Source: a virus. Taken from it: a stretch of DNA of 41,777 nt. Each line of letters starts with the position of its first letter. Position 1 is the stretch's first letter. The notes below the pieces were generated by a model. It saw only the letters and a list, made by a program, of their open reading frames with translations, did no database searches and had not been told where the DNA came from. Location of the stretch: the UHGV virus genome UHGV-0060642; one strand, given 5' to 3'. Made by a program: the position numbers and the translations under genes. Shown piece by piece: positions 36,703 to 41,777 of this stretch.

Positions 36703-39417
36703 ATGTTTATTATGCCAGAACAATTATACAACGTAGTTGTTTCACAACCAAGTCAGTTATTTACTTTAGCTCGCTCGTTTAAAGCAAATGCCAATGGCAA
36801 AATTTATATCGGTAAAATTGACACTGACCCGGTAAATCCTGAAAACCAGATTCAAGTTTATGTAGAGAACGAAGATGGCTCTCACGTTCCTGTTGCACAG
36901 CCAATCGTCATCAATGCCGCTGGGTATCCAGTATATAACGGACAGATTGCCAAATTCGTAACCGTGCAAGGCCATTCTATGGCTGTTTACGATGCTTATG
37001 GCACTCAGCAGTTTTATTTTCCAAATGTATTAAAATACGATCCAGATCAGTTTGGCCCAGACTTCAAAGAGCAGTTATCTCAATCAGGAGCATACATTAA
37101 TGATGATTCAAAAGGTGATGCATTAATTGGGGTAAGGCAGCCATTTACCGGGGCTGTAACTATAACTCAGCATGAAAACAATGCTCTTTTCTTAAATGTA
37201 AAACAATTCGGAGCAATTGGGGATGGGAAATATCATCCATTATCTGAGAGGTTTTCTTCAATTTCTGAAGCAAAATCCTTATATCCTTTTGTTGACTCAT
37301 TATCTCAGTCAATAGACTGGGCCGCGTGGCAAGCTGCCCTTAACACAGGAAAGGTTATTTATGGTACTGATAATGCGTATGTAATAACGGATACGTTAAC
37401 ACCTGTTTCTGGTGGTGGGATAATTGGTCTTGGTGTGGGCAAATGGGTCTCCGGATATACTGCAACATTTGCTCCTGATATTACCACAGGGACCACATTC
37501 CTGATGTACGGGGTAGGAAATAAAAAATATACTGTAGATTGTGTTTCTAATATGGATGTTAGTGGTGGTGTGGTTTCTAATCCATCTTCCGAAGACCCGT
37601 ATACAACAACAGCACCTGCGTCATCATATGATTTATTGGATTTTACTAACGGTGATGCTAATGGGACTACAAGAGCCACGCTTAAACCATTCTCTGCCGC
37701 AATATTGATGCCTGAGACAGGATGTGTTCGCCTTGAGAACTTTCGTGTTGTTCCATATTTCAATGGGCTGGATGGTTATAAAGACATTGCAAATACCGGT
37801 CTTGGCGATGAGTGGGATGTAGGTATTTGGTCACGTGCGTCTTTTGGCAATGAATACCGCAATTTGCAGGTGGTTGGATACTGGCGCAAGACGGCACTTT
37901 TAAAAACGAACATTCCTGTATCTGGCACGCTGGCTGCTCAGGGCGAGGATGAAAACTATTATCACTGTAGATTCCAGGGATTCAAGGGTGTTTCGATCCG
38001 CGCCAATGATGTATTCCGAATTACAGCGGTAACGTCCAGCACTATCGAAATCCCATGGTCAGCAAGCCACACCTTCGAAACGTCCGGAGTTTTAAGATCT
38101 GGAGGCAGGAATTTCACTTATTCAGGATTATCCGTATCCGGTGATAAGTTAGTATTTACTGGAGTGTCTAACGCTTCTGAGGCAACAGTAGGTTCTACTA
38201 TACGGCGAAATGACATAGATAACTTTGGTATGGCGGGAACGCAATTTTTCGATTGCTACATTACCAGCCTGTATCACCACACACATCTGCTTGCCACATC
38301 GCAATACCTGTCTCAACCATTCAGCCGACCATCAGAGTGTATGGAGGTTTCAGGGGAACCAGTTCGCGGTGTACAGGTACATGCAGGAACCATTCAGGGA
38401 TGGGATGATGTTCTTATTCATCTGCATGACTGTGGAAATATGAACTTTTACAGTACATATTTCGAAAGCCAGCAAGCATATGTAACTATAAATGGTGGTA
38501 ATGCTATTGGTTATGGAGCACGTATGATAGCTTCCCGGCAATCAACAAGCTCATTACCATATGCAGCAGGGAATACACGAGTGCTTAGAATGGTCGGGTG
38601 CTCTGAAGGCAATGGCGTTGACTGGGGTCCTGTATTTAACAACTATACAGGAGGAAGATATAATTCTGGAGACGGTGTATTTAACCCCCGCGATGCATTT
38701 ATAGACCATAAATCTCTTCCTGAGCAGTCAGGAGGTGAGTCAAGACTCGTATCACAAAAAGGAAATGCCAGAGTAGTATGTGGTGTTGGTAAAACTGTAC
38801 TGCTTGGACCAACGTCAGGAGATTGTAATTTACAGAGTAATACCGGAAGTTTAAATATTAGAAGTGGGATAAGAGTAAGAGTCGGTCACGCTGATGGAAC
38901 AGACTGGTGGTTGGCAGATGCTAATAAAATAGCTCCTGTTGATGATAATGTTAAAGCTATTGGACAGCCATCAAACAGATGCTCTGTTATCTATGCAGGA
39001 ACCGGGTCAATCAATACATCAGATGAAACTCTTAAAACAAGATATGATATTCTTAATGCAGAGCGTGATGCCGCTATTGAAATAAAGTCAGTCATCTATA
39101 AATTTAAATTTAATGACTCAATTAATCACAAAGGAATTGAGTCGTCCAGGTATCATTTTGGCGTTGGCGCTCAAACTGTAGGGGATATTCTTAGAAAGCA
39201 TGGTTTAAATCCTGAGCAATATGCTTTTTGGTGTTACGATGAATGGCCTGACGTATGGGATGAAGAGGTGATAACTGAAGAGAGCACAGATCCTGATACA
39301 GGTGAGAAAATTTATTCTCAATATAAAACAGGAGATATGATTCTTGTAAAAAAAGCAGGAGGACGCTACGGAATTCGTTATGACGAATTGGCTATGTTTA
39401 TATTAATGGCAATGTAG
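36703..39417 (+). CDS. Tailspike: P22-type head-binding domain, central beta-helix domain, C-terminal intramolecular-chaperone (S74-like) domain
   Basis: N-terminus ...[49 protein letters not shown]...[15 protein letters not shown]...NVLKYDPDQ matches the P22 gp9 head-binding domain; C-terminus ...[11 protein letters not shown]...[23 protein letters not shown] resembles auto-cleaving chaperone domains of T5 pb1 and K1F endosialidase; alternative ATG at 36712. Confidence 0.88.
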
Positions 39418-39435
39418 TTGCAATAAATGCAGTAT

Positions 39436-39465
39436 ATCCCGCATAAAAATGCGGGATTGTTTTTA
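39436..39465 (+). terminator. Rho-independent terminator after the tailspike
   Basis: ATCCCGC-ataaaaat-GCGGGAT followed by TGTTTTT. Confidence 0.75.
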
Positions 39466-39725
39466 TCTGGTGTATTTATGAATTTTAAGTAAATTTTAGT
39501 ATTGATTACTGCATCGCAGTTAAAGCCTCATTACCTATGAGGCAAAACTGAGACACACAAGGCTTTGCACTGGATTGCAAGGCTTTGTGCTATCTGAGAT
39601 ATAGCAATGTTGGTTGCTCCACCTTTTCATCAAGCCAGTCCGCCCACCACTGCATCATTTCTCTGCGCTTATCGAGATACTGAGCATGGTTGTAAATTCA
39701 ACTAACCCAGTGAGTTGACAAAAAA

Positions 39726-39760
39726 TTAGCGCAAGAAGAAAAAAAATCACCTTGCGCTAA
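39726..39760 (-). promoter_or_regulatory. sib: sib/tI-like retroregulatory hairpin
   Basis: 10-bp stem TTAGCGCAAG ... CTTGCGCTAA around an A-rich loop, just left of the P arm as in lambda. Confidence 0.55.
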
Positions 39761-39930
39761 TGCTCTGTTACAGGTCACTAATACCATCTAAGTAGTTGAT
39801 TCATAGTGACTGCACATGCTGTGTTTTGCAGTATTATGTAGTCTATTATTTAGATCAAAACCATCATAACACATTGATATTGATGATTTTTCTTGTTTCT
39901 CATTCAGCTTTTTTATACTAACTTGAGCGA
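39761..39930. promoter_or_regulatory. attR: attR (lambda P arm, core GCTTTTTTATACTAA near 39907-39921, host B' arm)
   Basis: ctgttacaggtcactaataccatctaagtagttgattcatagtgactgca... matches recalled lambda attP P arm; core followed by CTTGAGCGAAACGGGAAGGTAAAAAG, recalled as E. coli attB right-side sequence. Confidence 0.9.
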
Positions 39931-40011
39931 AACGGGAAGGTAAAAAGACAAAAAGTTGTTTTTAATACCTTTAAGTGATACCAGATGGCATTGCGCCATC
40001 TGGCAGAGTGA

Positions 40012-40488
40012 TTAACTAAACATCGCAGTAATCGAGGCACTCGCCAGAGAGTGAAAATGAACGTTAAACCCGACCATCGCGCCGCTGGCACCTTCATCGA
40101 CATCAATACGTTCTACATCCAGCGCGTGAACGGTAAAAATGTAGCGATGGGTTTCGCCTTTCGGCGGCGCTGCGCCATCGTACCCGGTTTTACCAAAGTC
40201 GGTACGCGTCTGCAAAACGCCGTCTGGCATAGCTACCAGACCAGAGCCAAACCCTTGCGGTAATACGCGGGTATCAGCGGGTAAATTAACAACTACCCAG
40301 TGCCACCAGCCGGAGCCGGTTGGCGCATCCGGGTCATAGCAGGTGACAACAAAACTTTTCGTTCCCACAGGAACATCATCCCACGCCAGATGCGGTGAAA
40401 TATTATCGCCATCGTAACCCATGCCGTTAAAGACATGACGATGCGGCAGCTTATCGCCATCGCGCAGATCGTTACTGATGAGTTTCAT
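40012..40488 (-). CDS. ybhB: Host YbhB (PEBP/RKIP-family protein)
   Basis: 158 aa MKLISNDLRDGDKLPHRHVFNGMGYDGDNISPHLAWDDVP...; PEBP-family motifs; located next to attB-lambda in E. coli. Confidence 0.9.
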   Translation of the reverse strand: MKLISNDLRDGDKLPHRHVFNGMGYDGDNISPHLAWDDVPVGTKSFVVTCYDPDAPTGSGWWHWVVVNLPADTRVLPQGFGSGLVAMPDGVLQTRTDFGKTGYDGAAPPKGETHRYIFTVHALDVERIDVDEGASGAMVGFNVHFHSLASASITAMFS

Positions 40489-40499
40489 TAGAATGCCTC

Positions 40500-41777
40500 C
40501 GGGAAACCTCGGCCTTCAGACCGGGGAGGAAAGGAGGCGGTTTTCCGACTAACTGTACTTTGCATAATCACATTTTCCTCTTTAGTATGTGAACACATGA
40601 AACGCGCATATAAATACCGGTTTTACCCGACAACTGAGCAGGCTGAGCTTTTAGCTCAGACGTTTGGCTGTGTGCGCTTCGTCTACAATTCCATCCTTCG
40701 TTGGCGTACCGATGCGTACTACGAGCGAAAAGAAAAGATCGGTTATCTACAGGCCAACGCTCGCCTTACGGCGCTCAAAAAAGAGCCTGAATACATATGG
40801 CTGAATGATGTTTCCTGCGTTCCCCTCCAGCAGTCGTTGCGCCACCAACAAGCCGCCTTTGCTAACTTCTTTGCCGGACGAGCTGCATATCCGGCTTTCA
40901 AAAGCAAACGGCACAAACAGGTGGCTGAGTTCACTGCCAGCGCGTTTAAACACCGTGACGGCGAGTTGTATATAGCAAAGAGCAAGTCGCCGCTGGATGT
41001 TCGCTGGAGTCGAGAATTACCATCTGCGCCGTCAACCGTTACCATTTCCAGAGATAGCGCTGGCAGGTACTTTGTTTCCTGCCTGTGTGAGTTTGAACCT
41101 GTATCAATGCCTGTTACCGCTAAAACGGTCGGCATTGATGTGGGCTTAAAAGATTTATTCGTCACCGATACCGGATTCAAAACCGACAATCCCCGCCACA
41201 CCGCTAAATATGCGAAGCGATTAACGCTGCTACAGCGACGTTTAAGCAGGAAGCAAAAAGGCTCAAGAAACCGTATTAAAGCCCGCTTAAAGGTCGCCCG
41301 ACTCCACGCGAAAATCGCCGATTGCCGGATGGACAATCTGCACAAGTTGTCCCGCAAACTGATTAACGAAAACCAAGTTGTTTGCGTCGAATCCCTCAAG
41401 GTGAAAAACATGATCCGCAACCCGAAGCTGTCTAAAGCAATAGCTGACGCAGGCTGGAGCGAACTTGTTCGCCAGCTCCAGTACAAAGGCAAATGGGCCG
41501 GGCGGTCAGTGGTCGCCATTGACCAGTATTTACCGTCCTCAAAATGCTGTAGTTGCTGCGGTTTCACCATGCAAAAAATGCCTCTTAATGTTCGTAAATG
41601 GCACTGCCCTGAATGCGGCGCAGACCATGATCGCGACATTAACGCGGCACGTAATATTAAAGCTGCCGGGCTGGCAGTGTTAGCCCACGGAGAGCCTGTA
41701 AACCCTGAATCGCAGCACGCGGCTTAGGTTCGGCTCGTTGAAGTGGGAATCCCCGTCATTCAGGGCGGGGAGCCGTC
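40500..41777 (+). mobile_element. Probable TnpB-only IS200/IS605-type element (ends not defined; may extend beyond the window)
   Basis: tnpB inserted upstream of ybhB; hairpin-capable sequence after the tnpB stop (tccccg...cgggga) could belong to the right end/omega-RNA region; no tnpA present. Confidence 0.45.
40597..41727 (+). CDS. tnpB: IS200/IS605-family TnpB (OrfB) RNA-guided-nuclease-like protein
   Basis: 376 aa; N-terminal hallmark KRAYKYRFYPTTEQ; C-terminal zinc finger CCSCCG...CPECG; RuvC-like segments (GIDVGL..., ...DRDINAARNI). Confidence 0.85.
   Translation: MKRAYKYRFYPTTEQAELLAQTFGCVRFVYNSILRWRTDAYYERKEKIGYLQANARLTALKKEPEYIWLNDVSCVPLQQSLRHQQAAFANFFAGRAAYPAFKSKRHKQVAEFTASAFKHRDGELYIAKSKSPLDVRWSRELPSAPSTVTISRDSAGRYFVSCLCEFEPVSMPVTAKTVGIDVGLKDLFVTDTGFKTDNPRHTAKYAKRLTLLQRRLSRKQKGSRNRIKARLKVARLHAKIADCRMDNLHKLSRKLINENQVVCVESLKVKNMIRNPKLSKAIADAGWSELVRQLQYKGKWAGRSVVAIDQYLPSSKCCSCCGFTMQKMPLNVRKWHCPECGADHDRDINAARNIKAAGLAVLAHGEPVNPESQHAA

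Follow-up and report, generated by a model that had tools for sequence, protein, structure and literature searches.

A TnpB-only IS200/IS605-type element on the start codon of ybhB, identified by sequence as gipA of Escherichia coli

Does the tnpB gene beside ybhB, at the right-hand end of UHGV virus genome UHGV-0060642, belong to a transposable element, to the adjacent prophage or to the bacterial host? In the stretch analysed here (41,777 nucleotides, one strand; hereafter, the window), we read it as part of a non-autonomous, TnpB-only (IS1341-like) element of the IS200/IS605 family, composed of a left-end (LE) hairpin, an intact tnpB and a guide RNA scaffold that overlaps both the 3' end of tnpB and the right end (RE), the gene itself being E. 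coli gipA; we give this reading a probability of roughly 0.87. The element occupies 40489-41779 (1,291 bp), its right end lying 2 nt beyond the window. Elements of this kind are already known, the gene has been annotated and named before (the NCBI pipeline already labels it an RNA-guided endonuclease), and by the standards of TnpB elements it is unremarkable. The original prediction for this locus had also called a TnpB-only element, but it missed the identity with gipA, the insertion exactly at the ybhB start codon with replacement of the ribosome-binding site, and the incidental nature of the nearby prophage attachment site, attR.

The family of the protein can be judged from the gene and the key residues of its product:

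40597..41727, plus strand: tnpB (= E. coli gipA), 376 aa, product starting MKRAYKYRFYPT (ORF list, Pfam, NCBIfam, phmmer)
Residues D181 (GIDVG), E265 (CVESL) and D347 (HDRDIN) of the product: RuvC triad, all three kept in the alignment to the ISDra2 motifs GvDvG, tEhLk and hDRDeNAA
Residues C317-C321 and C337-C340 of the product: zinc finger CxxC..CxxC, kept

Three Pfam domains score above cut-off, namely HTH_OrfB_IS605 (PF12323, residues 1-45), OrfB_IS605 (PF01385, 172-274) and Cas12f1-like_TNB (PF07282, 287-354), and the NCBIfam model guided_TnpB (NF040570) gives 369.5 bits against a cut-off of 100. Among PDB sequences, phmmer aligns residues 3-369 with the TnpB of ISDra2 (8bf8, 8exa, 8h1j; E=9e-75). 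The ORF, both family databases and the PDB-sequence alignment agree with the 376-aa TnpB originally described, with its RuvC segments and C-terminal zinc finger, and the catalytic residues, the loss of which had been named as a reason to abandon that description, are intact. An IS607-type TnpB is not indicated: the IS607_TnpB model reaches 169.8 bits where 350 are required, and no recombinase gene is found in the ybhB-bioA interval. With the triad whole, the protein also lacks the hallmark of TldR proteins, the loss of RuvC catalytic residues. Measured against relatives, the family-level dN/dS of tnpB is 0.07-0.13.

Two side observations concern the gene itself. No Shine-Dalgarno sequence precedes tnpB (40577-40599), and a -10-like TAGTAT stops 8 nt before the ATG at a spacing that is conserved among relatives, which suggests that the mRNA may be leaderless or near-leaderless. 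Frameshifts or early stops were seen in some copies (L011, L021 and L005, the last from strain JX21CE8); in JX21CE8 an internal stop interrupts ybhB as well, and this points to errors of assembly, not to decay.

The ends of the element were set from empty sites and from copies in other species, for which 79 related loci were retrieved. The features at and around the two boundaries are as follows:

40012..40488, minus strand: ybhB (PEBP/kinase-inhibitor family), divergent from tnpB (ORF, Pfam PBP, NCBIfam PRK10257 at 343 bits, RefSeq annotation)
40484..40488, plus strand: transposon-adjacent motif (TAM) TTCAT (empty sites, and TCAT directly left of the LE in relatives); CAT at 40486-40488 is the ybhB ATG on the other strand
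40489..40596, plus strand: LE of 108 bp, between the insertion boundary and the tnpB ATG (alignments to K-12 and relatives)
40495..40538, plus strand: two-tier subterminal hairpin of the LE, with outer stem GCCTCC/GGAGGC and an inner stem inside the repeat at 40501-40528
41750..41771, plus strand: subterminal hairpin of the RE, CCCCGTCA..GGGCGGGG, which is also helix 5 of the RNA model
41776..41777, plus strand: the two bases with which the terminal cleavage motif of the RE, TCAA, begins (conservation in relatives ends after ..GTCAA; UPEC_U013 junction)
Across the clade: end hairpins of the form CCYCGNCC..GGNCGGGG

The carrier UPEC_U013 is 100% identical to the window over 39900-41777, and in it bioA begins 110 nt past the tnpB stop. 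In K-12, the spacer between ybhB and bioA measures merely 58 bp and holds no element. Aligned with a slash at each junction, K-12 reads ...GAGTTTCAT/GAA CCCTCCTTTC..., and UPEC_U013 reads ...GAGTTTCAT/TAGAATGCCTCC...GGGGAGCCGTCAA/GAG CCCTCCTTTC.... The empty site TTTCAT/GAACCC is thus set against the occupied site TTTCAT[..GTCAA]GAGCCC, with no target duplication, and UTI89, a close relative without the element, shares the empty site of K-12. Among the related loci, conservation begins right after TCAT (TTTAT in one sub-clade) and ends right after ..GTCAA. In all, K-12, UTI89 and ~25 relatives served to define the boundaries. This comparison with reference E. coli genomes, which the original prediction had proposed, bears out its suspicion of a strain-specific insertion absent from K-12: a subset of E. 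coli is occupied, both boundaries can be found, and an ancestral gene with no identifiable ends is not what the locus looks like. The start first proposed, 40489, is the exact left boundary, albeit by coincidence, while the right boundary is 41779, past the window. As for aligning other genomic copies, which had been advised as the route to the ends, no E. coli genome offered a second copy, and it was the empty sites and the copies in other species that served.

A 28-nt repeat able to form a hairpin occurs at both ends in the same orientation (40501-40528 and 41745-41772, 79% identical). Direct-repeat hairpins at both ends are the arrangement of IS200/IS605 elements, and the hairpins here are imperfect, subterminal and on the same strand, without terminal inverted repeats. 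The inner stem of the LE is predicted across 21 relatives, in which the two stems are 81.8% paired versus 73.8% in shuffles (0/500); single-sequence DNA folds of the LE and RE hairpins were not better than shuffles. At the RE, the hairpin may serve in DNA, in RNA or in both. Together with the domains, the catalytic triad, the insertion 3' of a motif without duplication, the guide RNA at the RE and the lack of an internal TnpA, these hairpins place the element among the TnpB-only (IS1341-like) members of IS200/IS605.

The guide RNA (omega RNA) is the second functional part of such an element, and here it can be modelled almost entirely within the window:

41662..41777, plus strand (runs on to 41779): predicted guide RNA scaffold of five helices, overlapping the last ~65 nt of tnpB; predicted guide GAGCCCTCCTTTCTTG beyond the window

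Taking up the earlier suggestion of a structure prediction downstream of tnpB, we derived a consensus fold with RNAalifold from 26 relatives, aligned over the final 140 nt of the element. The resulting model has five helices with 29 pairs, 21 of which show compensatory changes, and starts inside the 3' end of tnpB; helix 4 crosses the tnpB stop codon. Model cells are paired in 94.5% of cases; column shuffles give 79.3% (0/500), and sliding the partners by 1-3 columns lowers the figure to 38-57%. The covariation score of 0.463 compares with 0.19 for shuffled and at most 0.21 for slid alignments. In most comparisons with relatives, dS falls to 0.17-0.40 in codons 341-376, versus 0.7-1.5 in codons 1-340, as would be expected if a functional RNA overlaps the gene there. 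A guide RNA at the right end that runs off the window had been anticipated; the ~16-nt guide indeed lies wholly outside, along with the final 2 nt of the element. On plasmid p21AR0133C (L086, 3001-3071), an orphan fragment was also noticed between two HTH genes: 71 nt of a related scaffold, at 94% identity and truncated on either side. We considered this fragment as a gene-less mini-element and ruled that out; it is a truncated scaffold relic of a lost copy.

The gene has a second name. Among phage genomes, the best tblastn match of the protein is the 'Peyer's patch-specific virulence factor GipA' of Gifsy-1, with 86.4% aa identity over all 376 residues, and the Gifsy-1 gipA DNA is 89% identical to this element in the LE and 90% identical in the RE/scaffold. 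The gipA gene has been listed in LF82, 536, CFT073 and E2348/69 (PMC2941450, the LF82 genome paper), and that list matches the strains carrying this element, which in LF82 is the sole such copy. Published gipA primers match exactly, those of PMC5443141 at 40820-40839 (plus strand) and 40983-41002 (minus strand), and those credited to Vazeille et al. 2016 by PMC7310525 at 40833-40851 and 41013-41032, with a 200-bp product, as published. From the GipA identity, the strain list and the exact primer matches, we identify the tnpB ORF as E. coli gipA. The GipA of Gifsy-1 has been called TnpB-like by Bao and Jurka, 2013 (PMC3627910). In the literature searched, we found no link between the virulence work on E. 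coli gipA and RNA-guided TnpB; the identification joins two bodies of work, on gipA virulence and on TnpB guide-RNA nucleases, that do not cite each other there.

A partner transposase is missing from the element, as had been predicted: tnpB is alone in the 1,291 bp, and the next gene in UPEC_U013 is bioA. When the related loci were searched by tblastn with the TnpA of IS200C, a Y1 tnpA was found within 3 kb at only 2 of the 79 (L059, L080), which we regard as in line with the ~25% association given for tnpB genes generally (10.1101/2023.03.14.532601). The ends of IS200C have no similarity to those of this element, and a Yersinia plasmid that bears several copies of the element yielded no partner TnpA over its first 50 kb. 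Lacking a Y1 TnpA in cis, and with no trans-acting one identified, the element appears to be currently immobile in E. coli. At L080 (2524-2935; Endozoicomonadaceae), a 136-aa Y1 (HUH) tnpA is followed by the reverse complement of the Endozoicomonas-type LE hairpin of that clade and abuts a truncated tnpB. This tnpA is a lead to the partner transposase of the clade, though the locus is rearranged.

The position of the element relative to ybhB deserves separate treatment, and two further features are needed for it:

40496..40500, minus strand: GGAGG of the LE, a putative outward-reading Shine-Dalgarno at 7 nt from the ybhB ATG (read from the sequence)
40564..40593, minus strand: weak sigma-70-like site TTCACA-18-GATTAT (TG-extended), facing ybhB (consensus scan)

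The start codon of ybhB is formed by the CAT of the TAM, read on the other strand, and the element lies between that ATG and the ybhB ribosome-binding site. On the ybhB strand, the first 12 nt of the LE read GGAGGCATTCTA-ATG, a consensus Shine-Dalgarno with a 7-nt spacer, while the ribosome-binding site that K-12 uses, AAGGAGGG, is displaced past the right end and into the guide region. The layout CCGGAGGCATTCTG-ATG is repeated in enterobacterial relatives, and all enterobacterial LEs carry GGAGG. A like geometry was seen at tail gene U of Gifsy-1 (the CDS ends at 2392 and the LE starts at 2393), at a head-processing gene of P1-like plasmids and at traX of a Yersinia IncFII plasmid. An outward promoter in the LE was also considered and dropped: two promoter-like sites were found versus 1.5 expected in shuffles, and the site facing ybhB is absent from some relatives.

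For a count of such docking, 137 metagenomic and viral loci were added. By automated scan, 27 distinct TCAT-type sites could be evaluated, and at 24 of them an ORF of at least 94 aa starts at the CAT on the opposite strand; a manual tally gave 31/36. As background, 18% of the ATGA sites in the flanks of the same loci open such an ORF and 5% are also the first in-frame ATG; among ATGA sites not interrupting an ORF, 7% are ORF starts (binomial P ~1e-25). Docked loci include L004, L008-L011, L015, L017, L029, L030, L065, L087, L107, L112, L115, L117, L119, L121, L126, L129, L186, L192, L214 and L225. Reconstructed empty sites look like ordinary initiation regions: they are purine-rich at -7 to -12, with a stop in frame 1-40 codons upstream and ATGA alone invariant. 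The docked ORFs are full-length and unrelated, and include NAD kinase, heptosyltransferase, carbonic anhydrase, phage minor tail protein L, a GntR regulator, ferredoxin and tyrosine phosphatase. For example, one copy on metagenome contig Ga0308165_1006005 (L126, 2383) is docked where a NAD kinase ORF begins, the Pfam domain NAD_kinase starting at residue 8 of its product. NAD kinase (nadK) is essential in E. coli, and the element must therefore allow expression of the gene on which it is docked.

Docking at ATG would follow from the TAM itself, TCAT being the complement of ATGA, and in the enterobacterial branch the replacement Shine-Dalgarno of the LE may explain why even essential genes such as nadK tolerate the element. 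In a Zobellella/Pseudomonas sub-clade the LE has no GGAGG and the elements are still on start codons, which shows that a donated ribosome-binding site is not the whole explanation. We lean slightly towards the view that the TCAT-motif (GipA-type) clade is specialised to dock antisense between the host Shine-Dalgarno and the ATG, with the enterobacterial LE replacing the Shine-Dalgarno, either as a way of limiting harm or as a capture of host genes. The bias towards start codons could reflect either the choice of target or selection after insertion. No description of start-codon docking by IS200/IS605 elements was found in the literature searched, the coverage of which was incomplete.

Within E. 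coli, ybhB and tnpB are contiguous in 342 of 5,426 complete genomes, always in the ybhB-bioA interval and in a single copy. The element alone was found in 391 genomes, with a median of one per genome: 346 places are chromosomal, 333 of them at >=99% identity, and a further 46 are on ~97-kb plasmids (P1-like) at ~81% identity, of which the one examined (AR_0372) bears phage-type genes. Three E. coli records are 90-95% identical to the element, and a more sensitive search added nothing closer. Carriers include CFT073, Nissle 1917, ABU 83972, 536, LF82, NRG 857C, E2348/69 and ATCC 25922, which we take to be phylogroup B2 strains; besides UTI89, the site is empty in S88, APEC O1 and ATCC 11775.

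The adjacent prophage end (36703-39921) is P22-like, with a 904-aa tailspike and, in the matching genome, Arc/Ant-type genes, and is integrated at the lambda attB core:

39907-39921: lambda-type att core GCTTTTTTATACTAA, the single core copy in the window

The element had been described as immediately beside attR. It does lie ~570 bp from it, but this adjacency is incidental, as CFT073 has the element without the prophage. Two observations on sequence catalogues belong here. Nineteen predicted viral contigs in IMG/VR (L167-L185) end exactly at the tnpB stop codon; prophage callers run the prophage across ybhB into the host tnpB, and catalogues of this kind therefore list gipA as viral. The bin 'uncultured Sutterella sp.' includes a 1.5-kb contig (L006, CAJKAP010000026.1) that carries a 99%-identical TnpB with the E. 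coli right-end junction and flank ...GTCAA/GAGCCCTCCTTTC; the contig is probably misbinned.

How would such an element have arrived and persisted? In our reading, it entered the 58-bp bioA-ybhB spacer 3' of TTCAT, with no target duplication, and has since been passed on vertically, or through homologous recombination, at one copy per genome in part of E. coli. On the model of the homologous ISDra2 and ISGst elements, tnpB and its RNA would be transcribed from the LE. TnpB would then bind the scaffold, and the 16 nt of flank past ..GTCAA would serve as the guide. The predicted nuclease complex would cut TTCAT-GAGCCCTCCTTTCTTG, the scarless joint left by excision, and a cut joint would lead to restoration of the element from the sister chromosome. 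For the host, the insertion parts ybhB from its own ribosome-binding site and from bioA, with the GGAGG of the LE as a putative substitute and ybhB presumably expressed through or out of the element.

Several results weigh against this reading. The exception-level NCBIfam model IS200_TnpB (NF038281) gives 400 bits, below its cut-off of 425, for which reason the protein is named only at the broader guided_TnpB level. The single-sequence RNA fold is not beyond shuffles (z = -1.46), which leaves the structural case to covariation, and no Rfam family is matched at gathering level. The E. coli copies are 99.8-100% identical to one another, and the intactness of the ORF within E. coli is accordingly a poor indicator of selection. 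Finally, position 41782, the third base past the right end and position 3 of the guide, is G (GAG) in all carriers and A (GAA) in every empty E. coli site seen (compare L085, 363); with this mismatch, natural empty alleles are probably not cut.

Other explanations of the locus have to be set against the TnpB-only element. That the gene is cargo of the adjacent prophage was suggested by its distance from attR and by the frequency of relatives in prophages and phage-plasmids. This idea is refuted: CFT073, Nissle 1917 and others have the identical element with no prophage at attB (in CFT073, ybhC lies directly beside ybhB), which means that it is not phage cargo, and even here ybhB separates it from attR and bioA is on its other flank. 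A quite different proposal is that GipA/TnpB has been co-opted as a host or virulence factor, for example an RNA-guided regulator or stress factor, and is in this way responsible for the Peyer's patch and macrophage phenotypes of gipA mutants of Salmonella and adherent-invasive E. coli. In the passages of PMC7279240, PMC7310525 and PMC2941450 that cite Stanley 2000 and Vazeille 2016, gipA is described as induced by bile salts and in macrophages and as supporting Peyer's-patch colonisation. The single copy at one fixed locus, intact in 333 genomes at >=99% identity, and the purifying selection at family level are also in keeping with exaptation. However, elements of this type, complete with transposon ends, occur at ~30 unrelated loci, as is typical of mobile DNA; the protein keeps its RuvC triad, which nuclease-dead TldR regulators do not, and the guide is simply flank. 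The association of gipA with the invasive pathotype was, moreover, not reproduced and is thought to be phylogenetic (PMC7205867; PMC5443141). We regard exaptation as distinctly improbable.

The mutant phenotypes could also have arisen through polar effects, if deletion or disruption of gipA alters expression of bioA or of the gene at the docking site, which is ybhB in E. coli and tail gene U in Gifsy-1. At both ybhB and Gifsy-1 gpU the LE starts directly at the ATG of the docked gene and places GGAGG 7 nt upstream, such that the element carries the ribosome-binding site of that gene and occupies its only upstream region; in addition, a promoter-like site in the LE faces ybhB, and bioA ends 110 nt from the tnpB stop. 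The number of promoter-like sites is at chance level, though, and ybhB is not known to have a phenotype, and we hold the polar explanation only tentatively. More doubtful in our view is that the element is an inert fossil, a recent, dead insertion without mobility or activity that has yet to decay. No tnpA is present in cis, none of the 391 genomes has a second copy or any sign of movement, the IS200C ends are dissimilar, the guide mismatches the empty alleles, and pseudogene relatives exist (L011, L021, JX21CE8). On the other side, no damage is seen in the ORF, in the catalytic residues, at either end or in the RNA helices, and immobility is not the same as an inactive nuclease.

If the clade is indeed specialised for docking at start codons, a 25-year-old 'virulence factor' would be recast as an RNA-guided nuclease, and the phenotypes of its mutants would have to be re-examined against effects on docked genes. 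The gene serves as a virulence gene, a polymerase chain reaction (PCR) marker and even a fluorescence in situ hybridisation (FISH) probe for Crohn's-associated E. coli, and it is an intact TnpB with a predicted guide RNA. With gipA recognised as a tnpB on the ybhB start codon and beside bioA, nuclease-dependent, RNA-dependent and polar explanations of these phenotypes can be separated by experiment. The strong preference of the clade for start codons, combined with a ribosome-binding site of its own, offers a testable case of a selfish element limiting the cost of its insertion. The result is also relevant to the engineering of Nissle 1917, which has an endogenous and presumably active TnpB.

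Among known systems, the closest is the gipA element of Gifsy-1 (AF246666; NC_010392, 19746-20876), which is likewise TnpB-only with TAM TCAT and a RE ending in ..GTCAA. Its LE abuts the opposite-strand start of gpU (CDS 1991..2392 in L087) with the same GGAGG, as at ybhB. It differs in lying inside a phage tail operon rather than between bioA and ybhB, in its guide (CGTGAAAGAT..) and in the first base of the LE, C there and T here. The TnpB of ISDra2 from Deinococcus radiodurans has the same domain order, D-E-D triad and zinc finger, and a scaffold that runs over the tnpB 3' end to the RE. ISDra2 TnpB has 408 aa and that element has tnpA in cis and the TAM TTGAT, whereas the element here has a 376-aa TnpB, TCAT and no tnpA. 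The TnpB/IscB elements of Geobacillus stearothermophilus (ISGst) are also without tnpA, with conserved hairpins at LE and RE and TAMs TTTAT and TTCAT, and their guide RNA targets the excision joint, which is the basis of the retention model (Meers et al., 10.1101/2023.03.14.532601). They differ in having ~47 copies per genome, TnpA in trans and no described preference for start codons; the present element has a single copy per genome, with no TnpA identified for it.

IS607 TnpB has guide RNAs (reRNAs) whose core is RAGATH-18, a motif reported to co-occur with this type of TnpB alone and without CDS overlap (Ren et al., PMC11061315). The only Rfam matches were below threshold, one to RAGATH-18 (RF03064) at 41684-41749 (E=0.006) and a chance match to a snoRNA. 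The RAGATH-18 match spans the whole Rfam model and shares the central GGAG...UGAA stem motif, but here the protein is of the IS200/IS605 type, the RNA overlaps the CDS and the score is 29 bits versus a gathering value of 44.9; it is best treated as a shared motif and not as membership. TldR proteins have lost RuvC catalysis, unlike the present protein, in which D181, E265 and D347 are all present. In other respects these nuclease-dead, TnpB-like repressors on prophages are similar, as they have the TnpB fold, are often phage-borne and are linked to host-interaction phenotypes (PMC13418256).

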